From: a virus
Taxonomy: Duplodnaviria; Heunggongvirae; Uroviricota; Caudoviricetes
Virus record (IMG/VR): IMGVR_UViG_2537562014_000005
Direction: 5' to 3' (one strand)
Length of the DNA: 27,009 bases
This document shows, one piece after another, positions 3,308 to 27,009 of this stretch; the stretch's first letter is position 1; the number at the start of each line of letters is the position of its first letter. Made by a program: the position numbers and the translations under genes. The notes beneath the pieces are model-generated. The model was not told the origin of the DNA and did not search any database. It was given only the letters and a program-made list of their open reading frames with translations.

Positions 3308-3883
3308 CTACGGCAGTGCTGGCCATTCAATATCCTGTGAAGTTGACGTATCAACACGGTTCAGCAATACCCGATACTTTTTCCATGCTTCCAGCAACGA
3401 GATTTCTTCCTCCGTTGCAATTTCCAGATCTGCAGCATCCTGAAGTGGCGCAATATGCTCATTCGCTGCCTGCATCAGGCTGTTTTTTGTTTCTTCCGCC
3501 TCCCGGATCCGGAATAGTTTTTCTGCTTCTGCATCTTTCACCCAGGCTGTGCCGTTCCACTTCTGAAACTCCCCTTCCGGGGATAACCAAGTGGCATTTT
3601 CCGGTAACGGACCGAGTTCAGAAATAAATAACGCGTCGCCGGAAGCCACGTCATAAACCGTTTTACCCCGATGATCTTCAACGAGATGCCACGATGCCTC
3701 ATCACTGTTGAAAACAGCCACGAAGCCTGCCGGAATATCTGGCGGTGCAATATCGGTACTGTTTGCTGGCAGACCTGTATGAGGCGGAATATATGCATCA
3801 CCTTCACCAATAAATTCATTAGTTCCGGCCAGCAGATTATAAATTTTTATGGTCCGTGGTTGTTCACTCATTCTGAATGCCAT
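3308..3883 (-). CDS. tfaQ: Tail fibre assembly protein (Tfa family)
   Basis: 191-aa ORF immediately downstream of, and translationally coupled to, the side tail-fibre ORF; Tfa-like sequence. Confidence 0.85.
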
Positions 3884-5424
3884 TATGCAAGCCTCACAAT
3901 ATAGTTAAATGCGATGTTTTTGACGGTGTTTTCCGCGTTACCAGCAGCGTTAACGGTGATGGTGTGTCCATGTGAACCAATCGCAACGGAGTGCGTATGA
4001 GCACCAATACCGACAGTATGCGCGTGTGCACCTGCAGATGCTGCTGTGCCGGACAGTGAGTGGCTATGATTACCATCTGTACTGGTATTAGCTAACCACC
4101 CCGTAGACATACCTACTGAGCCTTGTACACCCCAGGTATTTTGACCTGAGCTTGTATAACCATATTGATAAGTATCTTTAAAAACACTGGGGTTAAATCG
4201 ACGGCCATCTCTATGGCTGTGATTACCAGCTGCATTCGTGCTGCCACTTAAACTATGGGTATGCGCACCAGTGTTATTCGTGGATTTAGTGCCGTAATCA
4301 AACGACGATGTGGTTTTCGTCCCCAAATCCGTACTGGATGCGCTGGCGCTGTGGGTATGCGATTTAATGCCGTCCTGTTCCTGAGACAATACGGCCCGAC
4401 CACTGGCAGGTTTGCCCTTAATCGTCCAGCCACGCATATCAGGGATCACGCCTGACGGATAAGCCGCTGCAAGTTTCGGGTATGCAGATTTGTCAAAAGC
4501 CTGCCCCTGCATCAGGGCATAACCAGACGGAACGGTATCTGATGGCCACGGGATTGGTGCGCCGACTGGGTAGCTTTCTGGTGGAAGATTTTTCGAGGTA
4601 TAAACTTCTGCCCAGTCTTCCTCAAAACCATAGCCATCTCTTGAGGAACGGTAGAACAGACCTCCATTTCTGTAATGTGCCTTCATCTGCAAGGTCCGGC
4701 AACTTCCGACTCCGGTATAGAAGTTAACCAGAATATAGGTGTCGCCAGAGCGGGTGACATTGTAAGCGCCTGATTCGGCATTCCAGGGAACGCCACCATC
4801 CGCATCGGCATATGTATCCGTTGCCCTTCTGGCAAAAGCAGCCACATGCGCGGCGGTTAAAGTAATATCTTTGGAACCATCAAACTCAACACCAGAAACC
4901 CGTCTTGGCGTTTGCAGCTTTGTTGCTGTTAATGCATTACCGTTCAGACTTGCGGACAGTTTGGTTCCAATAACCAGTTCGCCGGTTGCGTTATCAATAG
5001 AAAACGGTCTTAATGTATTCCAGCCACCATAAACATCACCTTGATTGGTAAGCAGCAGGTGAGTTTTAGCGCCATCATTACGCCATAATGCACCATACTC
5101 CCCACCTATCATTCGAATCTGATTACCACCACGCGCTACAATTTCGTCTGTGGCAAAAAGTTTTTTGCACGACAAGTTATCGTTAACGATTAACGAATTA
5201 GACTCATAAAAACCACGCCCACTCTTAAAATCAAGGATAACGTCCGCCGCGATACATTCAGTCGCCGGATTTGTTGCCCCAAACTTATAGGTCGTATCAT
5301 TAACAACGAGATCAGCACCAGGTGCGGATATTGACAGGCCATCTTCGATAAACGCAAAAACAGGGAAAGCTGCGCCATCAACATAGAACACAGAGCGCAA
5401 ATCATCGCCCTTATTACTCATCAT
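3883..5424 (-). CDS. stfQ: Side tail fibre protein with Gly/Ser/Thr-rich repeats and C-terminal HxH histidine-box repeats
   Basis: 513-aa ORF; repeated HTHS/HSHS/HAHT/HGHT motifs near the C-terminus, typical of distal tail-fibre tips; ATG at 5424 overlaps the stop of the upstream reading frame (TAATG). Confidence 0.75.
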
Positions 5425-5460
5425 TATTGAGTGGATGGCTCGTTCATTGTTTTGATATTG

Positions 5461-6351
5461 TCAGAACATTCCATAAGCATAACGCCCCCTGTCAGTCCAG
5501 CCGCCAGGCATAACAAATCCGTTATGTTCGCAGAGATAAAACACGCTGGAGGGATCATCCGGCGTCCATTTGAGGCCAAACGGCGTCTCTTTATCGCCAA
5601 ATTTAAGGTACTGCTCCTCCCCGCAGTGCGGGCAGGCAACATGAAAACGCATAAAATGCGGGGATTCACTGGCTGCACGCTCAATCTGACAGGTGCCTCT
5701 CACTTTGGGCGTGGAGCCACGGATGGACTTTGGCCAGACCGAGCCTTCAATACGCTTGTCACCCAGGAACGTCGGAGAGCCTTCCTGTTCAATATCATCA
5801 TCAAAAGCAGCAAGTTCATCATAACCCGCCACATCCACCGACTTTTCACGGTAGTTTTTTGCCGCTTTACCGCCCAGGCACCAGAAGTCACGCCCATTAG
5901 TGAAACGCTTCATGGTGAGCGTGTTATCCCGGTGCTTTTTGCCATACCACGGGGCCAGCGCCAGCAGCGACGGAATATCACGAATAGTCGGCTCAACGTG
6001 GGTTTTCATAAAGTTCTCGGCATCACCATCCGTCGGCAACCAGATAAGGGTGTTGCGCTGCTTATGCTCTATGAAGTAGGCATAAACACCCAGCAGCATT
6101 TTGGAATAACCGACACGGGCAGACTTCACCACATTCACCTCACGGATGTAGTCGCTGCCCATCGCATTCATGATGGCCCGCTGAAAGGGCAGTGTTTCCC
6201 AGCGCCCTTCCTGGTATGCGAATTCTTTCGGGAGATAGTAATTAGCATCCGCCCATTCAACGGCGGTCTGTGGCTCCGGCCTGAACAGTGAGCGAAGCCC
6301 GGCGCAGACAAAATGCCGCAGCCTGTTAACCTGACTGTTCGATATATTCAC
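5461..6351 (-). pseudogene. Terminase large subunit (lambda gpA-like) N-terminal fragment fused to unrelated sequence
   Basis: ORF matches my recollection of lambda gpA from residue 1 to about 277 (MNISNSQVNRLRHF...FYLCEHN), then diverges into 19 unrelated residues and a stop; overlaps the Nu1-like gene by 26 nt as in lambda. Confidence 0.85.
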
Positions 6352-6871
6352 TCAGCAACCCCGGTATCAGTTCATCCAGCGCGGCTGCTTTGTTCATGGC
6401 TTTGATGATATCCCGTTTCAGGAAATCAACATGTCGGTTTTCCAGTTCCGGAAAACGCCGCTGCACCGACAGGGGGATCCCGTCGAGAATACTGGCAATT
6501 TCACCTGCGATCCGCGACAGCACGAAAGTACAGAATGCGGTTTCCACCACTTCAGCGGAGTCTCTGGCATTTTTCAGCTCCTGTGCGTCGGCCTGCGCAC
6601 GCGTAAGTCGATGGCGTTCGTACTCAATAGTCCCTGGCTGGAGATCTGTCTCGCTGGCCTGCCGCAGTTCTTCAACTTCCCGGCGCAGCTTTTCGTTCTC
6701 AATTTCAGCATCCCTTTCGGCATACCATCTTATAACGGCGGCAGAGTCATAAAGCACCTCATTACCCTTGCCACCGCCTCGCAGAACGGGCATTCCCTGT
6801 TCCTGCCAGTTCTGAATGGTACGGATACTCGCGCCGAAAATGTCAGCCAGCTGCTTTTTGTTGACTTCCAT
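6326..6871 (-). CDS. nohQ: Terminase small subunit, lambda Nu1-like
   Basis: 181-aa ORF matching my recollection of lambda Nu1 over nearly its full length (MEVNKKQLADIFGASIRTIQNWQEQGMPVL...). Confidence 0.85.
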   Translation of the reverse strand: MEVNKKQLADIFGASIRTIQNWQEQGMPVLRGGGKGNEVLYDSAAVIRWYAERDAEIENEKLRREVEELRQASETDLQPGTIEYERHRLTRAQADAQELKNARDSAEVVETAFCTFVLSRIAGEIASILDGIPLSVQRRFPELENRHVDFLKRDIIKAMNKAAALDELIPGLLSEYIEQSG

Positions 6872-6949
6872 TGTTCATTCCACGGCCAAAAACAGAGAAA
6901 GGAAACGACAGAGGCCCAAAAGCTCGTTTTCAGCACCTGTCGTTTCCTT

Positions 6950-7120
6950 TCTTTTCAGGGGGTATTTTAAATAAAAACATTAAGTTACGACGAAGAAGAA
7001 CGGAAATGCCTTAAACCGGAAAATTTTCATAAATAGCGAAAACCCGCGAGGTCGCCGCCCCGTAACCTGTCGGATCGCCGGAAAGGACCCGCAAAATGAT
7101 AATAATTATCATCTGCATGT
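6950..7120 (-). other. Lambda-type cos site (cosQ-cosN-cosB); cosN 12-mer at 7049..7060
   Basis: Reverse complement of 7049..7060 is GGGCGGCGACCT, the lambda cohesive end; flanking sequence matches remembered lambda left-end and right-end sequence. Confidence 0.8.
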
Positions 7121-7259
7121 CACAACGTGCATCTACGCAATCAAACCACGTCAAATAATCAATTATGACGCAGATATCGTATTAATTGATCTGCATCAAC
7201 TTAACGTAAAAACAACTTCAGACAATACAAATCAGCGACACTGAATACGGGACAACCTC

Positions 7260-7493
7260 ATGTCAACGAAGAACAGAACCCGCAGAACAACAACCCGCAA
7301 CATCCGCTTTCCTAACCAAATGATTGAACAAATTAACATCGCTCTTGAGCAAAAAGGGTCCGGGAATTTCTCAGCCTGGGTCATTGAAGCCTGCCGCCGG
7401 AGACTGTGCTCAGAAAAAAGAGTTTCTTCTGAAGCAAACAAAGAAAAGAGTGACATTACTGAATTGCTCAGAAAACAGGTCAGACCAGATTGA
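7260..7493 (+). CDS. ynfO: Small basic protein, possible ribbon-helix-helix DNA-binding fold
   Basis: 77-aa ORF next to cos; length and position match my recollection of ynfO; the RHH suggestion is an inference from the sequence pattern (RNIRFPNQMIEQINIALEQ). Confidence 0.55.
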   Translation: MSTKNRTRRTTTRNIRFPNQMIEQINIALEQKGSGNFSAWVIEACRRRLCSEKRVSSEANKEKSDITELLRKQVRPD

Positions 7494-7550
7494 AGCAATT
7501 TAGATAATCGTGCAGACTACGCCCCCTCATATCACATGGAAGGTTTATCT

Positions 7551-7961
7551 ATGGATCAGGTAGTCATTTTTAAACAAATATTTGATAAAGTTCGAAACGA
7601 TTTAAACTATCAATGGTTTTATTCTGAGCTAAAACGTCACAATGTCTCACATTACATTTACTATTTAGCCACAGAGAATGTTCATATTGTATTAAAAAAT
7701 GATAATACAGTGTTATTAAAGGGCCTAAAAAACATTGTGTCTGTCAAATTTTCAAAGGATAGGCATCTTATAGAAACGACCTCTAATAAGCTGAAATCCA
7801 GAGAGATCACATTTCAGGAATACAGAAGAAACCTTGCTAAAGCAGGAGTTTTTCGGTGGGTTACAAATATCCACGAACAAAAAAGATATTACTATACCTT
7901 TGATAATTCATTACTATTTACTGAAAGCATCCAGAAAACTACACAGATCTTACCACGCTAA
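7551..7961 (+). CDS. ydfO: DUF1398-family prophage protein
   Basis: ORF 7536..7961 with internal ATG at 7551 giving 136 aa, the length I recall for YdfO; position between cos and gnsB. Confidence 0.65.
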
Positions 7962-8112
7962 ACCATAACGTCCGGCTTCTCTCACTCCTGAGCCGGACTG
8001 CATTGGTTTAATAAAAACCATCAACAATTGTGATTTAGATATTCGGAACCATTCAAATATAACAAAACCCCGTAAAAACGAGGTTTATGGATAAATTTTA
8101 TTATTGAATACA

Positions 8113-9533: not shown

Positions 9534-10557
<1,024 letters not shown>

Positions 10558-10561
<4 letters not shown>

Positions 10562-10869
10562 ATATATTTATGATGAGGACGCTCGTGCTTATTGGCAGGA
10601 TTTTCAATCTTAAAGGAGTACTGATGCTGCAGATAAGACTCAACTTTTTCTGACAATTTTTCTGCTACTTCCAGGAAGACTTGCCGGACGCTCCTTCTGG
10701 CTGCTGCCTCATAAAACTCCAGCGCAGCTCCTTCAACACGGTCCATGGCGACATCCAGGTCAAAAATTTCACCGTCAAAGCGTTCCTTGTCCTGTAAGGC
10801 TACAGTTACCGTAACTTTATTCTCAAAATTACGGACTCCTTTCACAACCAGTTCATAGTCTTGAGTCAT
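10558..10869 (-). CDS. ydfR: Hypothetical prophage protein between holin and endolysin
   Basis: 103-aa ORF; length and position match my recollection of ydfR. Confidence 0.65.
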
Positions 10870-10873
10870 TGGA

Positions 10874-11089
10874 TTACTCTCCTCTCGCAGCCTTACGCCT
10901 GTCTTCTTTAATCTTGAAATAAAGATTTGTCAGATACGTCAGCAGGCCAAAAACCAGGCTACCCAGCACACCGATTGCAGCCCACTGTGACGGAGTTACT
11001 TTATCGAGTAACTGCAATGCCCAGAAACCAGCATTACCCGCCGATGTGCCATAGGCAACACCTGTTGTTAACTTATCCATTGATTTCAT
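10874..11089 (-). CDS. essQ: Phage 21-type class II holin/antiholin (71 aa) with dual-start motif MKSM
   Basis: Sequence [28 protein letters not shown]... resembles the phage 21 S holin as I recall it; two in-frame ATGs at codons 1 and 4. Confidence 0.85.
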
Positions 11090-11308
11090 ATCCTCACCCC
11101 GATGTACACGGATGGTGCAATATGTTTGAAAAGATCGGAGTCTACGGGGTAGTTTTGACAGCACACGTTGTTCTCAACGGCGCTAAAAAAACATACACAT
11201 TAAAAATGTGGGTAATTATTTTGAAAGAAAGTCATATATAAAATAATAATACGAGAAATGTTTTCATATTTAGTGTACTGTATACGGCCATTTATACAGG
11301 AAAAGCCT

Positions 11309-11479
11309 ATGTCAGAACGTAAAGACTCAAAATCACGCCGTAATTATCTCGTTAAATGTTCCTGCCCAAACTGCACCCAAGAGTCAGAACACAGTTTTTC
11401 AAGAGTACAAAAAGGTGCCCTTTTGATCTGCCCTCATTGCAACAAAGTATTCCAGACAAATCTTAAAGCTGTAGCCTGA
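11309..11479 (+). CDS. Small zinc-ribbon protein (two CxxC pairs)
   Basis: ATG at 11309 preceded by AGGAAAAG; CPNC and CPHC pairs about 20 residues apart. Confidence 0.5.
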   Translation: MSERKDSKSRRNYLVKCSCPNCTQESEHSFSRVQKGALLICPHCNKVFQTNLKAVA

Positions 11480-11842
11480 TTGATTTTATTAGTAACAAGT
11501 ATTTTTTATATTTTAATAATATATTTAAAGCAGATAATAAAAAACCCGCCTGAGCGGGTTTGAGATTGTGGTGCTTTTTGTGGGAGTCATCCACTTACGC
11601 ACTTTGTTTTGCGATGCCAGCAGTTAGCTTCTGCTGTGAAACTATTCATGCAGCAAACCTGCACTTCACCACAATGGTTAGCATACTTTTCCTGATTAAG
11701 ATTTTGCCAAATATGCTGGCCATTGTTTCATGTATTGGACCTCCTTACTTTTTATTAAAGAGATCCAATATTCACTACTCTGTCCGTATCTCTACTCAGG
11801 CATCAGCCTTCTTCGTTATCGTATACAGACGAGCGATGAATT

Positions 11843-12058
11843 TTAATCAGTAATGATGACATTTACTGCTGCAGGACCTTTAGCACCACTCTCTATAGAG
11901 AAGGTAACCTTTTGACCTTCAAATAAGGTTCGATAATTATCATTCTGAATCGCAGAAAAATGCACAAACACATCTTTACTACCATCAACAGGAGAAATAA
12001 AGCCGAAACCTTTATCAGCGTTAAACCATTTTACTAAACCAGTCATTTTATTTGACAT
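11843..12058 (-). CDS. cspB: Cold shock protein CspB (CspA family, 71 aa)
   Basis: Cold-shock domain with RNP motifs. Confidence 0.9.
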
Positions 12059-12368
12059 TCTACATTCCTTAACTTGAGCCTTTCGGCATAAATGGTTTGC
12101 ATAACAGAAACGACTTCGTACTTAATTGGAGAGACTCAAAGAAGGAATAAGTGAATAACACCTGAAATGAGAACTGCTTTAGTAAACTACTTCGTATATC
12201 GTCTGTTCTTCAAACCGACGCAGTCATTAACTCATAGTTGAACATATGAAGCAATGTTTATTTTAGACATCCAGCCACCTTCAATCCTATCAAAAAAGTA
12301 GTTTTCTCCAGGAACGTGTGTATGGTGCACCAGGTTATCAGTATTAAGGAGTTTTTCTGTCCCCTAAA

Positions 12369-12569
12369 ATGACAGGAATTGTCAAAAACTTTGACGGCAA
12401 AAGCGGCAAGGGTCTTATCACCCCATCCGATGGTCGTATCGATGTCCAGCTTCATGTTTCAGCGCTCAATCTCCGCGATGCAGAAGAAATTACCACCGGA
12501 TTACGCGTGGAATTTTACCGGATAAATGGTCTGCGTGGCCCTTCAGCTGCCAATGTTTACCTTTCATGA
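12369..12569 (+). CDS. cspF: Cold shock protein CspF-like (66 aa from the first ATG)
   Basis: Cold-shock domain; in-frame TAA at 12345 leaves only CTG-TCC-CCT-AAA before the ATG, so the N-terminus is shorter than the 70 aa I recall for K-12 CspF. Confidence 0.75.
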
Positions 12570-12623
12570 GCTATATTAAAGCTTTAATTTCAGGCCCCAT
12601 CGGATCACACATGGAGAGTTTTT

Positions 12624-12713
12624 ATGAATAACCCCGTCTGTCTTGATGACTGGTTGATTGGCTTTAAAATCTTATGCTGTACTTTGGCCGTAATAGCTCT
12701 GCTAATAATATAA
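12624..12713 (+). CDS. Possible 29-aa single-pass membrane peptide
   Basis: ATG at 12624 preceded by GGAGAG at 5 nt spacing; product [29 protein letters not shown] is strongly hydrophobic; below the ORF-track cutoff. Confidence 0.25.
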
Positions 12714-12808
12714 TAAGCAGACTCATTGTGTTTAGGGACATTGTGATCTTACCCAGCAATAGTGGACACGCGGCTAAGTGAGTAAACTCTCAGTCAGAGG
12801 TGACTCAC

Positions 12809-13108
12809 ATGACAAAAACAGTATCAACCAGTAAAAAACCCCGTAAACAGCATTCGCCTGAATTTCGCAGTGAAGCCCTGAAGCTTGCTGAACGCATCGG
12901 TGTTACTGCCGCAGCCCGTGAACTCAGCCTGTATGAATCACAGCTCTACAACTGGCGCAGTAAACAGCAAAATCAGCAGACGTCTTCTGAACGTGAACTG
13001 GAGATGTCTACCGAGATTGCACGTCTCAAACGCCAGCTGGCAGAACGGGATGAAGAGCTGGCTATCCTCCAAAAGGCCGCGACATACTTCGCGAAGCGCC
13101 TGAAATGA
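12809..13108 (+). CDS. insE: IS3 transposase OrfA (InsE-like, 99 aa)
   Basis: Matches my recollection of IS3 InsE ([31 protein letters not shown]...). Confidence 0.85.
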
Positions 13109-13971
13109 AGTATGTCTTTATTGAAAAACATCAGGCTGAGTTCAGCATCAAAGCAATGTGCCGCGTGCTCCGGGTGGCCCGCAGCGGCTGGTATACGTGG
13201 TGTCAGCGGCGGACAAGGATAAGCACGCGTCAGCAGTTCCGCCAACACTGCGACAGCGTTGTCCTCGCGGCTTTTACCCGGTCAAAACAGCGTTACGGTG
13301 CCCCACGCCTGACGGATGAACTGCGTGCTCAGGGTTACCCCTTTAACGTAAAAACCGTGGCGGCAAGCCTGCGCCGTCAGGGACTGAGGGCAAAGGCCTC
13401 CCGGAAGTTCAGCCCGGTCAGCTACCGCGCACACGGCCTGCCTGTGTCAGAAAATCTGTTGGAGCAGGATTTTTACGCCAGTGGCCCGAACCAGAAGTGG
13501 GCAGGAGACATCACGTACTTACGTACAGATGAAGGCTGGCTGTATCTGGCAGTGGTCATTGACCTGTGGTCACGTGCCGTTATTGGCTGGTCAATGTCGC
13601 CACGCATGACGGCGCAACTGGCCTGCGATGCCCTGCAGATGGCGCTGTGGCGGCGTAAGAGGCCCCGGAACGTTATCGTTCACACGGACCGTGGAGGCCA
13701 GTACTGTTCAGCAGATTATCAGGCGCAACTGAAGCGGCATAATCTGCGTGGAAGTATGAGCGCAAAAGGTTGCTGCTACGATAATGCCTGCGTGGAAAGC
13801 TTCTTTCATTCGCTGAAAGTGGAATGTATCCATGGAGAACACTTTATCAGCCGGGAAATAATGCGGGCAACGGTGTTTAATTATATCGAATGTGATTACA
13901 ATCGGTGGCGGCGGCACAGTTGGTGTGGCGGCCTCAGTCCGGAACAATTTGAAAACAAGAACCTCGCTTAG
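13105..13971 (+). CDS. insF: IS3 transposase OrfB (InsF-like, 288 aa; DDE catalytic domain)
   Basis: Matches my recollection of IS3 InsF; overlaps orfA; AAAAG slippery motif at 13071..13075. Confidence 0.85.
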
Positions 13972-14124
13972 GCCTGTGTCCATATTACGTGGGTAGGATC
14001 ATTGTACTGGAAGAAAACATTTTAAACATCAGGCAAATAACCAAGTCACCAGCTAAATAATAAGTTAACAGACATGAGTCCCGGGATGAGATTCAACATT
14101 ACCATTGCCCCATTTAAAGCACAA

Positions 14125-17645: not shown

Positions 17646-17672
17646 TCTTGTAATTACAAATGTCATTACAAG
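17646..17672 (-). promoter_or_regulatory. relBE operator-like palindromes (CTTGTAAT / ATTACAAG and TTGTAATTACAA)
   Basis: Overlapping inverted repeats immediately upstream of the relB start. Confidence 0.45.
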
Positions 17673-18936: not shown

Positions 18937-19434
18937 TCAATCTTTTTTATCGGGATCAGGCTTCTTTTTAGGTAACTTCGGGGGCTTAACTTGCTGATGA
19001 CTTTGCGTTCGGCGCGTAAGCCAGGGATGGTCAGCTTTAGGTTTAACATAGTATTTTGAGCGTAAATCAATACGGGCATTATCCACTCGTTCATGGACAC
19101 TCTTTTCATCATCCGGTGGTATAGGCTCCGGGCCATCAACATACTTTTCCCGGCCCAGCGCTTTCCCGTCATACAGAACGTTAATTTCACCGTCAAAGTT
19201 CTCGCATACAGTAACAACCGAATGCCTAAGTCGATATCCCCGGCCCTCACTGCGTACCTGAAACGCACTGCTTTTGTACTGGAAAGTGAGATTTTTAGAC
19301 AGAACGCGCTTCGCCTGTAGGCTGAAGATATAACCCAGTTCCTCTTCAGAATGGTGCACATCAAGATGAGCATTATCAGTAGTACGAGGCGACGTAGCGA
19401 ACCGGTTGTTATAGGCTTCAATAAAGGTCGGCAA
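18937..19434 (-). pseudogene. C-terminal remnant of a DDE transposase/integrase-like gene
   Basis: TTG-initiated 165-aa ORF whose start resembles the end of an rve-type catalytic domain (FIEAYNNRFA...); in-frame stop immediately upstream; a second long ORF overlaps in another frame. Confidence 0.4.
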
Positions 19435-19442
19435 TCCATTAA

Positions 19443-19731
19443 TCTAGTTGCCGGATGTTGGTGGATTTTCGCGTTTTAGTTGTTCATAAAAGTGCACAGC
19501 TTTAACCAGTTCTTCTGATGTAACTGGGACTGGTGAGGCAGTGAATAAGGCCTGAATTTGATAGTTCGGCCTGTCGTTACAATCCTCTTTTTTCGGTACA
19601 TATTTCCAGTCACCAGACCACTACTTCCCCTGAAAGTCCGTAACGCCTTTTTTCACGTAGCGATATCGCCATGCCACTGGTTTTGCTTGCCCCGCCGTTT
19701 CATGCCCTTCCTGATAATTAATCTCGCTCAT
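19443..19731 (-). pseudogene. Decayed small ORF (frame switch plus in-frame TAG)
   Basis: ATG at 19731 gives a 40-aa product; a second frame carries protein-like sequence interrupted by TAG at 19620..19622 and ends at 19443. Confidence 0.3.
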
Positions 19732-19919
19732 TCATCGCCCCACTCATCACAATATGCTTCGACCGGAGTTTTTCCCGCTTCATAGTCATCACGCTAGGAT
19801 TCGACATCAGCAGCACTTCCACCGCGTAACTCACCATAGTCCATTAATAGTTCATCCCGCTCTTCAAAACTGATGTTATATTTAGCTGAACAAAAATCAG
19901 CCACTTTGTTCTTCCTCAT
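19728..19919 (-). pseudogene. Small ORF interrupted by an in-frame amber codon
   Basis: MRKNKVADFCSAKYNISFEERDELLMDYGELRGGSAADVES, then TAG at 19794..19796, then RDDYEAGKTPVEAYCDEWGDE and stop; overlaps the next ORF by ATGA. Confidence 0.3.
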
Positions 19920-20341
19920 CGTCTTTTATTTCGTGGTATGAGTAATTGCAGTAGTTAAAGAAAATTTCTTATGCTCCGTCATGAATTTCCTCAGGTGTTG
20001 CGTCATCGTCCACTTCGAATACATCCTCAAAATCTCCACCAGCTATTCCCGTTTCAATAATAATTTTGAACTTTCGCATTTCACTACCGCCCTTTCGGGC
20101 GGCCTCCTGATGTTCTGAGGGTGCAGAAATCCATCCGGTTAAGGATTAAATTTTATTTACAGAACTGAATTTAATTATTCAGATATACGTATCTGTAGCC
20201 TTACGAATCTACTCACTGGATGCCTCTTTCATAAAAATAATCCAGTGGGTTTTATCGTTTTTTCCCTGTTCGTTGACAGATAACAGGTTTTCTGTCTGTC
20301 AGTGCCAGAATCTGGCTTACCGGTATTTGCGTTTCATTCCA

Positions 20342-20698
20342 TTAAAAAATCAGAACGCCGTGCGGCCTCAACACCCGAAAGGCTTCTTTAAATCTCTGTC
20401 GCGAATCATCACGCCAGGCATCTTTATTCAGCCGTCCATATTTCTTTCCCATCCAGGCGTTATCACCAACACTCTCAAGATGCGGAGGGTCTAATACAAC
20501 CATCGAAAAAGATGCGTCTGCAAATGATAATGCACGAAAATCTGCGATAATGTCAGGGCTGATAATCAAGCGTCTCCCATTGCGTAATGTGTATCCTTCT
20601 TTTCTGATATCGCTGAATATCGCCCGTTCGTCAGACTTATCGAACCAGAACATGCGGCTGCCACAGCACATATCAAGAATGGTTGCCGGTGCACTCAC
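20342..20698 (-). CDS. SAM-dependent amino-methyltransferase (DPPH motif IV), possibly C-terminally truncated
   Basis: 118-aa ORF with LDMCCGS (motif I-like) and DPPH; translationally coupled (ATGA) to the upstream Ren-like gene; 29 further sense codons follow the TAA stop. Confidence 0.55.
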   Translation of the reverse strand: MSAPATILDMCCGSRMFWFDKSDERAIFSDIRKEGYTLRNGRRLIISPDIIADFRALSFADASFSMVVLDPPHLESVGDNAWMGKKYGRLNKDAWRDDSRQRFKEAFRVLRPHGVLIF

Positions 20699-21117
20699 TG
20701 CGCCACGTCCTGAAAATTACCCTGATAGAAAGCCAGTATGCGCTGCATAACTTCGCTCTTCCGGCACTCGCGACAGATTATGTTTAGGCGACTGTCGTAG
20801 CGACGTATTTCTCCGTCAGGTGATGACCAGATAAGGTCCGGATCAACCACAGCAGGTTTCTTCACCTTTGCCCTCGAGAGTTTTTTGCGGGCGTTTTGCC
20901 AGTCCTTACGCGCCTGTTCAGAGGGGAATAACCCGTAGCCGGAGTTGTATACATCGCCACTGGCTACCAGCTCTCTGGCAAGAACGCTCATCAGATATCT
21001 AGTCGCACCTGTTTTAGCTTCCAGTTGCCGTAACGTCTCACGGCCGCTCTGGCGCACGAGTTCCACCACCTGCCATTTAATTTTTTCCCGCTCTTCTTGT
21101 GTAAAAACTTTTGCCAC
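20695..21117 (-). CDS. Ren-like protein (140 aa)
   Basis: GTG start preceded by AAGGGGGA; C-terminus RECRKSEVMQRILAFYQG resembles lambda Ren KECRQSAAMKRVLAVYG as I recall it. Confidence 0.45.
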   Translation of the reverse strand: MAKVFTQEEREKIKWQVVELVRQSGRETLRQLEAKTGATRYLMSVLARELVASGDVYNSGYGLFPSEQARKDWQNARKKLSRAKVKKPAVVDPDLIWSSPDGEIRRYDSRLNIICRECRKSEVMQRILAFYQGNFQDVAQ

Positions 21118-21157
21118 AAGTCCCCCTTAAAATTACCTCATGACCTGAAATCAACAC

Positions 21158-21382
21158 TTATCCTCTGAAACCAGGCGGAATTTCTGTATCCGGTTCAGAA
21201 ATATGATTAACACAACGCTGTACAGGTGAACGTCCCAGGCGGATGACCAGTTCGTCCCATTTTTCGCGGAGCTTTGACGGGCTCATGATGTTTTTTACCC
21301 AGAATGGATCTCGCTGAACCCGACCAAACATTTCGCAAATTTGTCTGTGGCTTCTGCCATCCAGCATCCGCATTGTGCGCAC
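21158..21382 (-). CDS. Hypothetical 74-aa protein immediately downstream of the replication initiator
   Basis: ORF only; occupies the position of a helicase-loader gene but is far too short and has no ATPase motif. Confidence 0.3.
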   Translation of the reverse strand: MRTMRMLDGRSHRQICEMFGRVQRDPFWVKNIMSPSKLREKWDELVIRLGRSPVQRCVNHISEPDTEIPPGFRG

Positions 21383-21391
21383 GTCATTGGC

Positions 21392-22177
21392 TCAGGCAGT
21401 CCAGTTAGGCTCTTTTGGTCGCATGATCTCGCCATCATCACTGGCTGCCTGTTCGTAGAGACCCACGATCCGCCCCCAGATCCACTGCGCACACGCCAAA
21501 TCCTCCCTGCTACCCCACTGGCGTTTTTTCGCACTAAACACAACCGCGTCGGAGTTCCGGGTTAAAAAATCCTGTTCAGTCGTCTGCGGGTCCGGTTGCG
21601 AAGCTTCCGGACGAAAAGTGTTTTTATTCTCTGTAGTAATCTCTGTTGTATTCTCTGTAAGATCATCAGGCCATTTTGACCCGATGACATTGGGTCGTTT
21701 TGAACCAATGGAGCGTTTCATTTTGACCTCTTCCATCGTGTCATTTTGACCTGATGGAGCGGCGCATTTTGAACCGATGGATTCGCTCAATTTGCCACCA
21801 TCTAAAAGCTCGCTCCCATAGTTGATCGTGTAGAAATTGGTCATATCGCGCTTTGATTTATTGAGCTTTTCACAACGCAAAAGCCCCAGCGTTTTCAGAC
21901 TTGCAAACGCGCGCTTTAACGTTGACTCTGACCAGAATGGGAACTGTTCCAGCCATTGTTCCGTTGTGTTATAAATCCAGCGAACACCATCACATTCCAT
22001 GCCGGAGTTGGTATCTCTCAACCAGTAGTGCAGTTGTTGCAAAACAATGGCTTCGTTTAAGCCAATTTTCATTGCCAGCTGCGTGTTTATAACCAGTGGG
22101 CGTTCAGCAAAAAGAAGGCTCATAATTCCATCCAGCTTTTTGTTGGTATTGCTGTCGATACGCAAGTTTGAAAGCAA
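21392..22177 (-). CDS. Lambda O-like replication initiator with internal origin iterons
   Basis: 261-aa ORF with an N-terminal winged-helix-like region; six tandem 23-bp repeats inside the coding sequence; start codon uncertain (alternative ATG at 22123). Confidence 0.65.
   Translation of the reverse strand: MLSNLRIDSNTNKKLDGIMSLLFAERPLVINTQLAMKIGLNEAIVLQQLHYWLRDTNSGMECDGVRWIYNTTEQWLEQFPFWSESTLKRAFASLKTLGLLRCEKLNKSKRDMTNFYTINYGSELLDGGKLSESIGSKCAAPSGQNDTMEEVKMKRSIGSKRPNVIGSKWPDDLTENTTEITTENKNTFRPEASQPDPQTTEQDFLTRNSDAVVFSAKKRQWGSREDLACAQWIWGRIVGLYEQAASDDGEIMRPKEPNWTA
21670..21811. repeat. Six direct iterons of 23-24 bp (core ATTTTGACC/ATTTTGAAC): putative ori
   Basis: Core starts at 21673, 21697, 21720, 21743, 21766 and 21789; lies in the middle of the O-like gene, as lambda ori does in O. 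Confidence 0.7.
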
Positions 22178-22325
22178 TTGCTTTTTCTATAAGTTCGTCA
22201 GTTTCACGATCCACTACGGCAGGATCAGCAAAAAGCAGTCCGGACTCCACCACATCGCCATATTCTTTGTTTAACCCGGCGATCATGCACGTGATGCTTT
22301 TTCCGTCAGTAATTTCACGATACAA
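22104..22325 (-). CDS. Doubtful ORF in the junction between the replication and dicB operons
   Basis: 73-aa ORF with TTG start and no convincing ribosome-binding site; no HTH pattern recognised; overlaps the predicted O-like start. Confidence 0.2.
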   Translation of the reverse strand: MYREITDGKSITCMIAGLNKEYGDVVESGLLFADPAVVDRETDELIEKAIAFKLAYRQQYQQKAGWNYEPSFC

Positions 22326-22429
22326 CCTGAAATCATTAATCCGGATATCCGGCGTTAATTGTTAACTGGTTAACGTCACCTGGAGGCACCAGGCACTGCA
22401 TCACAAAATTCATTGTTGAGGACGCGATA

Positions 22430-22618
22430 ATGAAAACGTTATTACCAAACGTTAATACGTCTGAAGGTTGTTTTGAAATTGGTGTCACTATCAGTAACCC
22501 AGTATTTACTGAAGATGCCATTAACAAGAGAAAACAAGAACGGGAGCTATTAAATAAAATATGCATTGTTTCAATGCTGGCTCGTTTACGTCTGATGCCA
22601 AAAGGATGTGCACAATGA
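22430..22618 (+). CDS. dicB: Cell division inhibitor DicB (62 aa)
   Basis: ATG preceded by GAGGA; length and sequence (MKTLLPNVNTSEGCFEIGV...) match my recollection of DicB. Confidence 0.75.
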   Translation: MKTLLPNVNTSEGCFEIGVTISNPVFTEDAINKRKQERELLNKICIVSMLARLRLMPKGCAQ

Positions 22619-22806
22619 ATTCAGCATTTGTGCTTGTTCTGACAGTTTTTCTTGTTTCCGGAGAGCCAGTTGATATTGCAGTCAGTGTTCACAGGACAAT
22701 GCAGGAGTGTATGACTGCAGCAACCGAACAGAAAATTCCCGGTAACTGTTACCCGGTCGATAAAGTTATTCACCAGGATAATATCGAAATCCCGGCAGGT
22801 CTTTAA
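22615..22806 (+). CDS. ydfD: Small protein with N-terminal hydrophobic segment, YdfD-like (63 aa)
   Basis: ATG overlaps the dicB stop (ATGA); N-terminal hydrophobic stretch FVLVLTVFLV; length and position match ydfD. Confidence 0.7.
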   Translation: MNSAFVLVLTVFLVSGEPVDIAVSVHRTMQECMTAATEQKIPGNCYPVDKVIHQDNIEIPAGL

Positions 22807-22898
22807 AACAGTTCCGTAATAAATATCCGGTTTCATTCTTATATGCCAGCAATGGCAGGGATTTGTTCATCCTTAAATCTGTCATGAGGTTAAAACAA

Positions 22899-25370
22899 AT
22901 GAGTAAAGTCTTTATTTGCGCCGCTATTCCTGACGAACTGGCAACAAGGGAAGAAGGCGCTGTGGCTGTAGCCACAGCCATTGAAGCTGGCGACGAACGC
23001 CGTGCTCGAGCAAAATTTCACTGGCAATTCCTGGAACATTATCCGGCTGCTCAGGACTGCGCTTATAAATTTATTGTCTGCGAGGATAAACCTGGCATAC
23101 CCCGCCCTGCCCTCGATTCATGGGATGCTGAATATATGCAGGAAAACCGCTGGGATGAGGAGTCTGCTTCTTTTGTCCCGGTTGAGACTGAATCCGATCC
23201 GATGAACGTCACTTTTGACAAGCTGGCCCCTGAAGTACAGAACGCTGTCATGGTTAAGTTCGACACATGTGAAAACATCACCGTTGATATGGTTATTAGC
23301 GCACAGGAATTGTTGCAGGAAGACATGGCAACATTCGACGGACATATCGTTGAAGCGTTGATGAAAATGCCAGAAGTTAACGCCATGTATCCGGAGCTTA
23401 AGTTGCACGCCATTGGGTGGGTTAAGCATAAATGTATTCCTGGTGCTAAATGGCCCGAAATTCAGGCAGAGATGCGCATCTGGAAAAAACGTCGCGAAGG
23501 TGAACGCAAGGAAACCGGAAAATACACGTCTGTTGTTGATCTCGCCCGCGCCAGAGCCAATCAACAGTACACTGAAAATTCAACAGGAAAAATCAGCCCG
23601 GTCATTGCTGCCATTCATCGCGAATACAAGCAGACATGGAAAACACTGGATGACGAACTGGCCTACGCTCTCTGGCCTGGTGATGTGGATGCCGGAAACA
23701 TTGACGGCAGCATCCATCGCTGGGCAAAAAAAGAAGTTATCGACAACGACCGCGAAGACTGGAAGCGTATCTCGGCATCAATGCGCAAACAGCCTGATGC
23801 CCTTCGCTACGACCGCCAAACTATTTTTGGCCTTGTCCGTGAGCGTCCGATCGACATTCACAAAGATCCCGTAGCACTGAACAAATATATCTGCGAATAC
23901 CTGACGACAAAGGGCGTGTTTGAGAATGAAGAAACAGACCTGGGCACTGTTGATGTTCTCCAGTCATCAGAAACACAAACTGATGCAGTGGAAACTGAGG
24001 TATCTGATATCCCAAAAAATGAAACCGCGCCGGAAGCTGAACCATCTGTAGAGCGTGAGGGGCCGTTCTATTTCCTCTTCGCAGATAAGGACGGAGAAAA
24101 ATACGGTCGCGCAAACAAACTCTCTGGTCTGGATAAGGCACTGGCTGCTGGCGCCACTGAAATCACAAAAGAAGAATATTTTGCCCGAAAAAATGGCACA
24201 TACACGGGCTTACCGCAAAATGTAGATACCGCTGAAGATTCAGAACAACCAGAGCCGATAAAAGTTACCGCTGACGAAGTAAACAAAATTATGCAGGCAG
24301 CCAATATCAGCCAGCCTGACGCCGATAAGTTGCTTGCTGCATCACGTGGTGAATTTGTTGAAGGGATTAGTGACCCGAATGATCCGAAATGGGTTAAGGG
24401 GCTCCAGACCCGCGATTCTGTGAACCAGAACCAGCATGAATCGGAACGGAACTACCAAAAAGCGGAACAAAACAGTCCAAATGCGTTACAAAACGAGCCA
24501 GAAACGAAACAGCCTGAACCAGTAGCGCAACAGGAAGTGGAAAAAGTCTGCACCGCCTGCGGTCAGACCGGCGGCGGCAACTGCCCTGATTGTGGCGCGG
24601 TGATGGGCGACGCAACATACCAAGAAACATTCGATGAAGAGTATCAGGTTGAAGTTCAGGAAGATGATCCGGAGGAAATGGAAGGCGCTGAACATCCACA
24701 CAAGGAGAACACTGGCGGCAATCAGCATCACAATAGCGATAATGAAACTGGCGAGACGGCAGATCACCCAATTAAGGTGAACGGTCATCACGAAATCACA
24801 TCCACCAGCAGGACGTGTGACCATCTAATGATCGACCTTGAAACCATGGGAAAAAATCCTGATGCCCCGATCATCTCAATAGGTGCAATATTTTTCGATC
24901 CGCAAACCGGAGATATGGGACCGGAATTTAGTAAGACTATCGATCTGGAAACTGCTGGCGGAGTCATTGATCGGGACACCATTAAATGGTGGCTTAAGCA
25001 ATCACGCGAAGCGCAATCTGCCATTATGACCGATGAAATCCCGTTAGATGATGCACTGTTACAATTGCGAGAATTTATCGACGAAAACTCCGGTGAATTT
25101 TTTGTTCAGGTTTGGGGAAATGGAGCCAACTTCGACAACACGATTTTGCGCCGTTCATACGAACGGCAGGGGATCCCCTGCCCGTGGCGTTACTACAACG
25201 ATCGCGATGTACGCACAATCGTTGAGCTGGGGAAAGCCATAGACTTCGATGCCAGAACGGCTATTCCATTCGAAGGTGAGCGCCATAATGCACTTGATGA
25301 CGCCCGTTACCAGGCAAAATACGTTTCAGTTATCTGGCAAAAACTGATCCCGAGTCAGGCTGATTCTTAA
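22899..25370 (+). CDS. RecE-like exonuclease VIII family protein with C-terminal DnaQ-like (DEDDh) 3'-5' exonuclease domain
   Basis: ATG at 22899 preceded by GAGG; central motif KLLAASRGEFVEGISDPNDPKWVKG recalled from RecE-family proteins; C-terminal motifs DLETMG, FDNTIL and H-x4-D (HNALDD). K-12 ydfE appears to be a truncated ortholog. Confidence 0.75.
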   Translation: MSKVFICAAIPDELATREEGAVAVATAIEAGDERRARAKFHWQFLEHYPAAQDCAYKFIVCEDKPGIPRPALDSWDAEYMQENRWDEESASFVPVETESDPMNVTFDKLAPEVQNAVMVKFDTCENITVDMVISAQELLQEDMATFDGHIVEALMKMPEVNAMYPELKLHAIGWVKHKCIPGAKWPEIQAEMRIWKKRREGERKETGKYTSVVDLARARANQQYTENSTGKISPVIAAIHREYKQTWKTLDDELAYALWPGDVDAGNIDGSIHRWAKKEVIDNDREDWKRISASMRKQPDALRYDRQTIFGLVRERPIDIHKDPVALNKYICEYLTTKGVFENEETDLGTVDVLQSSETQTDAVETEVSDIPKNETAPEAEPSVEREGPFYFLFADKDGEKYGRANKLSGLDKALAAGATEITKEEYFARKNGTYTGLPQNVDTAEDSEQPEPIKVTADEVNKIMQAANISQPDADKLLAASRGEFVEGISDPNDPKWVKGLQTRDSVNQNQHESERNYQKAEQNSPNALQNEPETKQPEPVAQQEVEKVCTACGQTGGGNCPDCGAVMGDATYQETFDEEYQVEVQEDDPEEMEGAEHPHKENTGGNQHHNSDNETGETADHPIKVNGHHEITSTSRTCDHLMIDLETMGKNPDAPIISIGAIFFDPQTGDMGPEFSKTIDLETAGGVIDRDTIKWWLKQSREAQSAIMTDEIPLDDALLQLREFIDENSGEFFVQVWGNGANFDNTILRRSYERQGIPCPWRYYNDRDVRTIVELGKAIDFDARTAIPFEGERHNALDDARYQAKYVSVIWQKLIPSQADS

Positions 25371-25442
25371 TGTTCAACTGTCGCCGGTTGTGACTGGTAT
25401 TCTGCAACCGGCGCTCGTCTGATGTAAGAGATAAAGAAATCG

Positions 25443-25694
25443 ATGAGCGAAGTAATCATGATTGTCTCTCCCGGCAAATGGGTATCCGAAGAGCAGTTAA
25501 TTGCGCTGAAAGGAATAAAAAAAGGTACGTTAAAAAAGGCCCGGGAAAAATCGTTTATGGAAGGAAGGGAATATAAGCATGTCGCTCATGACGGTATGCC
25601 ATGGGATAACAGTCCATGCTTTTACAACCTGGAAGAAATTGATCGCTGGATTGAGCGCCAGGCATCAGCGAGACCAAGACGTCATCTTACTTGA
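25443..25694 (+). CDS. Excisionase-like small protein
   Basis: 83-aa basic ORF immediately upstream of the integrase; start codon uncertain. Confidence 0.5.
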   Translation: MSEVIMIVSPGKWVSEEQLIALKGIKKGTLKKAREKSFMEGREYKHVAHDGMPWDNSPCFYNLEEIDRWIERQASARPRRHLT

Positions 25695-25728
25695 CTAAAA
25701 GCCACACTAACTAATGAGAGAAGTTGAA

Positions 25729-27009
25729 ATGAAATATCCGACAGGCGTGGAAAACCATGGAGGGAAATTACGTATCTGGTTTGTTTATAAAGACGTAAGA
25801 GTCAGGGAAAATCTGGGGGTTCCTGACACAGCAAAAAACAGGCGCGTTGCAGGTGAACTACGCTCCTCTGTTTGTTACGCAATAAAAACTGGTGTTTTCG
25901 ACTATGCAAAACAGTTTCCCTCCTCACGCAATCTGGAAAAATTTGGTGAGGCCCGACAAGATTTAACCATAAAAGAACTGGCTGAAAAATTTCTGGCACT
26001 GAAAGAAACTGAAGTCGCCAAAACATCACTCAACACATACCGTGCCGTCATCAAAAATATCCTGAGCATAATCGGTGAAAAAAATCTTGCCTCATCGATT
26101 AATAAAGAAAAATTACTGGAGGTTCGTAAAGAGTTACTGACTGGATACCAGATCCCCAAAAGTAACTATATTGTTACACAACCAGGGAGATCGGCTGTAA
26201 CTGTAAATAATTACATGACAAATCTTAACGCCGTGTTCCAGTTTGGTGTTGATAACGGTTACCTGGCAGATAATCCGTTTAAGGGGATCTCGCCATTAAA
26301 GGAATCAAGAACCATTCCGGATCCTCTTTCGCGGGAAGAATTTATCCGTCTTATCGATGCGTGCAGAAATCAGCAAGTAAAAAATTTATGGTGTGTTTCT
26401 GTTTACACTGGAGTTCGCCCTGGTGAGCTGTGTGCACTTGGATGGGAGGACATAGATCTGAAAAATGGAACAATGATGATCAGGAGAAATTTAGCAAAAG
26501 ACCGTTTCACGGTACCAAAAACACAGGCGGGAACCAATCGGGTCATTCATCTTATTAAGCCAGCAATCGACGCTCTCCGGAGTCAGATGACATTAACGAG
26601 ACTGAGCAAAGAGCATATCATTGATGTTCACCTCAGAGAGTATGGCAGAACAGAAAAACAAAAATGCACCTTTGTTTTTCAACCTGAAGTGTCAGCGAGA
26701 GTAAAAAATTATGGTGGCCATTTTACCGTTGACTCAATAAGGCAGATGTGGGACGCAGCGATAAAACGTGCCGGACTCCGCCATCGAAAATCATATCAGT
26801 CGAGACATACTTATGCCTGCTGGTCGCTGACAGCTGGTGCTAACCCGGCATTTATAGCAAACCAGATGGGCCATGCAGATGCGCAAATGGTATTTCAGGT
26901 ATACGGAAAATGGATGTCTGAAAACAATAATGCACAGGTAGCTTTGTTAAATACACAGTTAAGCGAGTTTGCCCCAACCATGCCCCATAACGAAGCAATG
27001 AAAAATTAA
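25729..27009 (+). CDS. intQ: Tyrosine site-specific integrase (lambda Int family), apparently intact
   Basis: ORF 25714..27009 (second ATG at 25729 preferred); C-terminal catalytic motifs (R...HxxR...Y region: SRHTYACW, GHADAQMVFQVYGKW); symbol by synteny only; stop codon is the last triplet of the window. Confidence 0.8.
   Translation: MKYPTGVENHGGKLRIWFVYKDVRVRENLGVPDTAKNRRVAGELRSSVCYAIKTGVFDYAKQFPSSRNLEKFGEARQDLTIKELAEKFLALKETEVAKTSLNTYRAVIKNILSIIGEKNLASSINKEKLLEVRKELLTGYQIPKSNYIVTQPGRSAVTVNNYMTNLNAVFQFGVDNGYLADNPFKGISPLKESRTIPDPLSREEFIRLIDACRNQQVKNLWCVSVYTGVRPGELCALGWEDIDLKNGTMMIRRNLAKDRFTVPKTQAGTNRVIHLIKPAIDALRSQMTLTRLSKEHIIDVHLREYGRTEKQKCTFVFQPEVSARVKNYGGHFTVDSIRQMWDAAIKRAGLRHRKSYQSRHTYACWSLTAGANPAFIANQMGHADAQMVFQVYGKWMSENNNAQVALLNTQLSEFAPTMPHNEAMKN

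Follow-up and report, generated by a model that had tools for sequence, protein, structure and literature searches.

The location of a replication origin inside the gene of its own initiator is a textbook arrangement, and the closest described case is that of phage lambda and its gene O. As re-derived here from the lambda record for comparison, ori-lambda contains four iterons at open reading frame (ORF) nucleotides 349-435 with spacings of 20, 24 and 23, followed by an AT-rich stretch and then by a palindrome with 12-nt arms (GTCAGAGAATTC/GAATCCTCTGAC). RepA_N replicons likewise have iterons in the middle of their rep gene, and the iterons of iteron plasmids serve both replication and regulation. 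Another related protein is DopC of Cellvibrionales and Oceanospirillales, a domesticated O-like protein in which a "DnaT C-terminal motif" (2ru8_A), detected by HHpred, replaces the usual C-terminal domain (Brezellec et al. 2017, PMC5509034). Here, we analyzed a 27,009-nt stretch of viral DNA (IMG/VR record IMGVR_UViG_2537562014_000005, hereafter the window), which its gene content identifies as a Qin-type lambdoid cryptic prophage of Escherichia coli or Shigella. An array of six 23-bp iterons lies within an O-like replication initiator gene of this prophage. From its sequence and that of its relatives, the array is likely the initiator-binding part of a lambda-type origin, present here most probably as a relic. 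The cryptic prophage in which this textbook arrangement is found is very common in E. coli.

Results

Iteron array and initiator gene

The six units of the array start, on the plus strand, at positions 21673, 21697, 21720, 21743, 21766 and 21789, with spacings of 24, 23, 23, 23 and 23 bp. The same starts and the 23-24 bp spacing had been given in a first-pass annotation of this DNA, and they were borne out on re-reading, in agreement with Tandem Repeats Finder (period 23, 3.7 copies, score 70) and with a separate repeat search (4-copy families spaced 23 bp). The units at 21673, 21720 and 21743 read ATTTTGACC, while those at 21697, 21766 and 21789 read GTTTTGAAC (one mismatch), ATTTTGAAC and AATTTGCCA (degenerate), respectively; the coding-strand consensus is G....TCCATCrGkTCAAAAT. 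The annotated number of six iterons is right in that six positions keep the register, but only four of them have exact cores, one being near-exact (1 mismatch) and one degenerate. Since the canonical core GAGGTCAAAGT occupies the position of the sixth unit in relatives, with the register unchanged, six ancestral units is a fair count.

The motif ATTTTGAMC was counted six times in the 27-kb window, including four copies within a 94-bp stretch of the array; shuffled sequences contained 1.0 copies on average and 4 at most, and none of the 100 shuffles reached six. Motif counts revealed no other cluster of the iteron motif elsewhere in the window. A search with a 16-nt pattern allowing 3 mismatches gave no signal above chance and was hence uninformative.

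The gene around the array had been annotated as a 261-aa protein with a separate 74-aa ORF. In fact, these are one gene of 321 codons split by a TGA (Table 1), because translation of 22177..21158 yields one unbroken frame in which this TGA is the sole internal stop. The 261-aa part (residues 35-261) matched PHROG 391, "replication initiation O-like", at profile positions 11-214 (E 1.6e-47), and the 74-aa ORF matched the same profile at positions 220-298 (E 3.5e-32). The two ORFs match consecutive parts of PHROG 391 and therefore belong together as a single gene. The annotation of E. coli ATCC 8739 and of isolate AHB21 has it as one 966-nt coding sequence for WP_000054512.1, named "hypothetical protein" or "phage replication protein O", from which the initiator of the window differs solely by the in-frame stop. 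About 1,100 of the 5,426 complete E. coli genomes carry this gene, and its homologues are nearly all labelled "hypothetical protein". In a Shigella flexneri contig, the N-terminal part of the gene is identical and an early stop is present, so that the window may come from a Shigella-like or otherwise heavily decayed lineage.

The stop takes the place of the TGG codon of Trp244, a residue that is invariant in an alignment of distant homologues. The changed base, window position 21392 (T on the plus strand, C in relatives), is the only difference between the window and ATCC 8739 over 2,915 bp. An exact match to a 61-nt probe spanning the TGA was found in 0 of 5,426 complete E. coli genomes; in 1,014 of them, the difference amounted to about one base. 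Judged from these genomes, the TGG>TGA change is a mutation private to the window. As a result of the stop, the protein loses the conserved half of its C-terminal domain as well as its tail.

In addition, 2,166 bp of ATCC 8739 are deleted from the window, with the junction at about 22347 between the YdaT gene and dicB (window 19433-22347 corresponds to 5134-8048 of the aligned ATCC 8739 stretch, and window 22346-26176 to 10215-14051). The deletion took the N-terminus of the YdaT-family gene, dicC, dicA, ydfA, ydfB and ydfC, up to just before dicB, which now adjoins the YdaT remnant; the divergent dicC/dicA immunity-promoter region is also gone. Because the initiator is truncated and the early promoter region is lost, this strain most likely retains the origin only as a relic, which is probably not functional.

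A question raised from these findings is whether the origin could still be active. The stop arises from a Trp codon by a single transition, and E. coli tRNA-Trp is capable of near-cognate decoding of UGA, so that low-level read-through would restore the exact wild-type protein; alternatively, the TGA could be a sequencing error. The origin DNA elements, moreover, are intact and identical to those in genomes with an intact initiator gene. Against this, the 2,166-bp deletion took dicC, dicA and the intergenic promoter region, from which intact relatives transcribe the early right operon; most morphogenesis genes are lost as well, and read-through would supply just a small fraction of the protein. 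Continued activity is thus quite improbable compared with a relic origin.

Table 1 Features of the initiator locus and its flanks in the window
Feature	Position	Strand	Evidence
O-like replication initiator gene, 321 codons, pseudogene in the window	21158..22123	minus	Translation; PHROG 391; annotation in relatives
N-terminal domain (residues 1-104), predicted winged helix and presumed iteron-binding	21812..22123	minus	AlphaFold2 model; Foldseek
Iteron array, six 23-bp units	21673..21811	minus	Tandem Repeats Finder; repeat search; motif counts
Three tandem 12-mers, presumed DNA-unwinding element	21625..21660	minus	Tandem Repeats Finder; repeat search; GC profile
Inverted repeat GTCCGGAAGC-TTC-GCAACCGGAC (coding strand)	21590..21612	minus	Pairing in homologues
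Lambda-O-like C-terminal domain (residues ~185-295), stop inside	21239..21571	minus	BLASTP; tblastn; model
In-frame TGA for Trp244 codon TGG	21392..21394	minus	Alignment to ATCC 8739
DnaT-like C-terminal tail (…RCVNHISEPDTEIPPGFRG), untranslated unless the TGA is read through	21161..21232	minus	phmmer; NCBIfam; hhalign
DUF977/"Ren-like" gene directly downstream of the initiator	20695..21117	minus	Pfam DUF977 E 5e-29; PHROG 142 "Ren-like exclusion protein"
YdaT/CII-like gene, C-terminal remnant	22104..22347	minus	Alignment to ATCC 8739

Organization of the putative origin compared with ori-lambda

The first-pass annotation had likened the array to the lambda origin inside gene O, and this likeness holds for the whole segment. 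Counted in ORF nucleotides, the iterons (313-451) are followed by three AT-rich 12-mers (464-499) and then by an inverted repeat (512-534), which is the order of ori-lambda. In both systems, the repeats lie within the initiator ORF at a similar distance from its start (349-435 in lambda) and are spaced 20-24 bp.

On the coding strand, the 12-mers read TACAGAGAATAC, AACAGAGATTAC and TACAGAGAATAA. The check on AT-richness of the array flank that had been proposed placed the GC minimum of the initiator gene (30%) at 21620-21659, that is, at the adjoining 12-mers. The underlying motif, (T/A)CAGAGAnTAC, is present in 3-5 copies in almost all gammaproteobacterial homologues; it follows the iterons, with synonymous sites kept, in enterobacteria, Pantoea and Pseudomonas, and is recognizable in some Firmicutes (Bacillus, Staphylococcus and clostridial homologues).

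The inverted repeat has arms of 6+2 bp in the window, compared with 9-10 bp in relatives. When its ten proposed pairs were examined in 22 distinct homologues, 88.6% of the cells were found to pair, versus 17-39% in slid registers. One of the pairs varies as GC (16 homologues), UA (4) and CG (2) and is unpaired in none. In the Edwardsiella and Scandinavium homologues, the palindromes resemble that of lambda in sequence.

The protein and its neighborhood also resemble lambda. The C-terminal domain is homologous to that of lambda O (BLASTP, 34% identity over 148 residues, E 1e-26), in an alignment that spans the lambda O part encoding the ori elements together with the C-terminal domain; tblastn of the initiator to lambda and Stx phages gave 36% identity (E 2e-16). 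The gene order, namely a cII-like gene, the initiator, (P) and a ren-like gene, is shared as well. On the other hand, the window has six units instead of four, its AT-rich part is built of conserved 12-mers, unlike that of lambda, and it has no P gene, while lambda O lacks the DnaT-like C-terminal tail that is present here. The label "O-like" accordingly suits the C-terminal domain and not the N-terminal one, which is not Phage_rep_O (PF04492): the 261-aa part had no Pfam match at E <= 0.01, and the full-length initiator had nothing relevant in Pfam at E <= 10.

In the AlphaFold2 model of the initiator, residues 14-101 adopt an H-H-strand-H-H-hairpin order, which is compatible with a winged helix, with a predicted local distance difference test (pLDDT) score of up to 83, and the C-terminal domain is helical (pLDDT 66-84). 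The linker between them (residues 109-174) is predicted to be disordered (pLDDT ~25) and coincides with the stretch that encodes the origin elements. Because these elements fall in a linker-coding stretch between two protein domains, the protein can tolerate the constraints on its DNA.

The N-terminal domain is 43-46% identical to initiators of Staphylococcus and Bacillus phages, and it is presumed from the model to be a Pfam-unassigned winged-helix domain that is common to the "DnaD-like" initiators of Gram-positive phages. Its likeness to RepA_N initiators (RepA of pSK41 and pTZ2162; 4pql) and to the DnaD N-terminal domain is weak and at the fold level (E 0.04-0.2), with no sequence-level membership and with different hosts and C-terminal partners; Foldseek winged-helix matches of this low-confidence model were not used for family assignment.

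The repeats might also be initiator sites with a mainly regulatory role (autorepression, handcuffing copy-number control or incompatibility), with replication starting elsewhere. While the iterons of plasmid systems are known for such dual roles, the array here is followed by an AT-rich block and then an inverted repeat, in the canonical order of ori-lambda, and the window has no second cluster of the iteron motif. A mainly regulatory array is hence hardly likely.

Co-inheritance of the iterons with the N-terminal domain and selection on the DNA

The array of the window was also found in Klebsiella phage vB_VIPKPNMC05 and in prophages of Citrobacter, Enterobacter, Edwardsiella and Xenorhabdus. 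Three phages share with the window either the same or a related N-terminal domain with its iterons, or the same C-terminal domain; their genomes were deposited complete and have intact genes, whereas the copy in the window is a pseudogene in a decayed prophage. In Klebsiella phage vB_VIPKPNMC05, the N-terminal domain is 75% identical and accompanied by GGTCAAAAT iterons and 12-mers that are the same as in the window, but the C-terminal domain differs (Pfam Phg_2220_C). In Hafnia phage yong2, the N-terminal domain is 56% identical and the repeats, spaced 23 bp, have the variant core GGACAAATT. Conversely, Shigella phage VIT_AJPSC has the C-terminal domain of the window but an HTH_36 N-terminal domain, together with different repeats spaced 15 bp. 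These comparisons indicate that the iterons travel with the N-terminal domain, whereas the C-terminal domain is exchanged.

We then surveyed the family. An N-domain profile search of viral contigs returned 80 loci that were all ~100% identical and thus unusable for comparison, and the diversity came from genome contigs: taking one genome per species, 76 ORFs with a homologous N-terminal domain were obtained. Phased repeats, defined as a 9-mer occurring three or more times in a ~23-bp register within ORF nucleotides 271-560, were present in 54 of the 76 ORFs, compared with 1 of 76 in the N-domain-coding control and 1 of 76 in the shuffled control. The 54 ORFs include those of Pantoea, Pseudomonas, Acinetobacter, Staphylococcus, Bacillus and lactobacilli.

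Since the period of 23 is not a multiple of 3, one DNA motif falls in all three reading frames. The repeated SIGSK peptide noted earlier is consequently only part of the picture: IGSK appears in three units (residues 134-137, 157-160 and 165-168 of the TTG-started ORF), but the other units read SGQN and EVKM. To compare DNA and peptide, we used the mean pairwise identity at each codon position among eight colinear homologues (the window, Citrobacter, Raoultella, Enterobacter and Izhakiella prophages, and one Klebsiella phage), which are related to each other and not phylogenetically independent. The results showed identities at codon positions 1, 2 and 3 of 0.90, 0.95 and 0.60 for the N-terminal domain, 0.86, 0.91 and 0.83 for the iteron array, and 1.0, 0.82 and 0.96 for the 12-mers. 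Inside the iteron unit, CCAT and TCAAA are the best-conserved positions. The relaxation at third positions is lost in the iterons and 12-mers, which argues for a constraint on the DNA. These data indicate that selection on the iterons acts at the level of DNA and not on the repeated peptide.

That the repeats are a mere DNA shadow of a repetitive, low-complexity linker peptide (SIGSK, TENT) with no function as DNA is therefore very improbable, because, even though the region does encode a predicted disordered linker and each 12-mer amounts to four in-frame codons, so that a T-E-x-T peptide repeat results that is recognizable in Gram-positive homologues too, the 23-bp period puts the motif in three frames, third codon positions in the iterons and 12-mers are conserved like first and second ones, unlike in the N-terminal domain, and across phyla it is the ~23-bp period that persists and not the peptide.

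Absence of a helicase loader and the DnaT-like tail

The gene next to the initiator is DUF977/Ren-like, and tblastn with P, DnaC and DnaB seeds found no homologue of these in the window, in line with the annotated lack of a helicase loader after the initiator. Nor was a P, DnaC or DnaB homologue found anywhere in the 34.5-kb genome of Klebsiella phage vB_VIPKPNMC05, and the loader-free arrangement also occurs in ATCC 8739, AHB21 and PhiR42_1 (a literature search returned no paper on PhiR42_1). The absence of a loader is a conserved trait of this initiator class and not a result of decay.

Similarity to E. coli DnaT is confined to its C-terminus, which the last ~20-24 residues of the initiator (…SEPDTEIPPGFRG) match. 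phmmer aligned residues 301-321 to the DnaT chains 2ru8, 6aep and 9zbt, the NCBIfam DnaT profile was matched at positions 160-179, far under its cut-off, and hhalign of tail-bearing C-termini against DnaT 156-179 gave E 1.2e-5. In the sequence searches of the initiator against PDB and NCBIfam, the tail was the only match. We rejected the initiator as a DnaT homologue, as the likeness is confined to these last ~24 residues and neither the DnaT N-terminal domain nor its three-helix-bundle C-terminal domain was found; a DnaT-like nature of the whole C-terminal domain was also dropped, since Phg_2220_C-type C-termini compared with DnaT profiles had no homology past the tail.

To relate the tail to the presence of a loader, 74 homologues were scored for the tail (P.GF[RK]) and for a P, DnaC or DnaB gene among the three ORFs that follow. 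A loader gene was near 0 of the 21 tail-bearing initiators and near 31 of the 53 without the tail (Fisher p = 8e-7, uncorrected for phylogeny). The tail, …D..IPxGFRG, was found on three types of C-terminal domain. The Trabulsiella homologue has the N-terminal domain, iterons and C-terminal domain of the window (the latter 64% identical), but ends in …GGHWNSPEAWENTL and is then followed by a lambda-P gene; in the Izhakiella homologue, a …GGHWNSPEAWENTL tail is borne by a Phg_2220_C domain, and P likewise follows. The same C-terminal domains thus occur with either tail, with the loader differing accordingly, which means that the tail, and not the C-terminal domain, tracks the partner gene. In vB_VIPKPNMC05, yong2 and VIT_AJPSC, an (I/V)PAGFR motif is located at or near the C-terminus of the initiator, and an adjacent helicase or loader gene is present in none of them.

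A plausible, if still tentative, explanation is that the last ~20-24 residues of these initiators are a portable partner-selection peptide, and that a DnaT-type tail mimics the C-terminus of host DnaT, thereby bringing DnaB-DnaC (or another DnaT partner) to the phage origin without a phage loader. These observations also suggest that the invariant tail of DnaT itself is a partner-binding peptide. DnaT reviews and a 2026 structure paper on the preprimosome contain nothing specific on DnaT residues 155-179, and the latter states that the recruitment of DnaB/DnaC remains unknown. DopC differs from the present case in being paired with the P-like DopE and in that no iterons were found in its gene (PMC5509034), whereas the window has iterons and no P-like gene.

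Other features of the prophage

The window contains genes for an invertase, remnants of tail-fibre and terminase genes, lysis genes, IS elements, ydfU and a methyltransferase, as well as DUF977, the initiator, the YdaT remnant, dicB, ydfD, an 835-aa exonuclease and an integrase. None of the complete E. coli genomes is colinear with the window; the best one covers 96% of it in 7 pieces across 47 kb.

A truncated tail-fibre gene (3883-5424) and a fragment of the gene for the terminase large subunit (5461-6351) lie 36 bp apart, from which it follows that essentially all head and tail genes have been deleted. The Qin prophage of K-12 has likewise lost its head and tail genes (stfQ to nohA). A second deletion junction is located at 19433-19439, where ~1.57 kb is absent relative to ATCC 8739, in the region of an ISNCY transposase remnant. 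Isolate AHB21 represents a further variant, with an IS66 insertion at the ISNCY remnant region.

In the 835-aa ORF (22863-25370), a long, acidic, low-complexity N-terminal part precedes a Rv2179c-like 3'-5' exoribonuclease domain (E 2.5e-67) at the C-terminus. The ORF occupies the position of the recombination exonuclease, and relatives annotate it as "exonuclease" or "exodeoxyribonuclease VIII". Tandem Repeats Finder also reported short repeats of period 13 at the start of dicB (22434-22458) and of period 12 at 17649-17671.

Discussion

Taken together, the phased repeats, their conservation as DNA, their co-inheritance with the N-terminal domain and the lambda-like order of the elements argue for a lambda-type origin inside the initiator gene. 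In intact relatives, the N-terminal, presumably winged-helix domain of the 321-aa initiator would bind the six 23-bp iterons, and the resulting nucleoprotein complex would then destabilize the adjoining AT-rich 12-mer block, after which the C-terminal part may recruit the host replicative helicase. As this class has no P, DnaC or DnaB partner, the DnaT-like tail (…IPPGFRG) could engage the host machinery directly.

Several points weigh against this interpretation. By inspection, the TCCATCrGkTCAAAAT units have no internal palindrome, unlike the lambda iterons with their dyad symmetry (TCCCTC…GAGGGA), and the inverted repeat of the window itself is weak, with two A·A mismatches. Since the N-terminal domain is not Phage_rep_O, the binding of the iterons is argued solely from analogy and co-inheritance. 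The overall confidence of the AlphaFold2 model is low (mean pLDDT 58), and its best Foldseek matches are weak (4pql_A at E 0.04 and the DnaD N-terminal domain 2v79 at E 0.23, with none at E <= 0.001). Recent horizontal exchange of the origin segment could partly explain the high conservation of its DNA. Furthermore, the papers searched did not report any origin activity of the Qin prophage or of this segment.

For annotation, these results mean that a gene labelled "hypothetical protein", without a Pfam domain, can now be named a replication initiator with a defined origin. The 23-bp period and the (T/A)CAGAGAnTAC 12-mers go with the N-terminal domain from enterobacteria to Bacillus and Staphylococcus, which would make this a widespread origin type that is recognizable from its sequence. 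Moreover, the separation between the DnaT-like tail and phage loaders offers a testable idea on how initiator-only phages may load the host helicase and on what the tail of DnaT binds.

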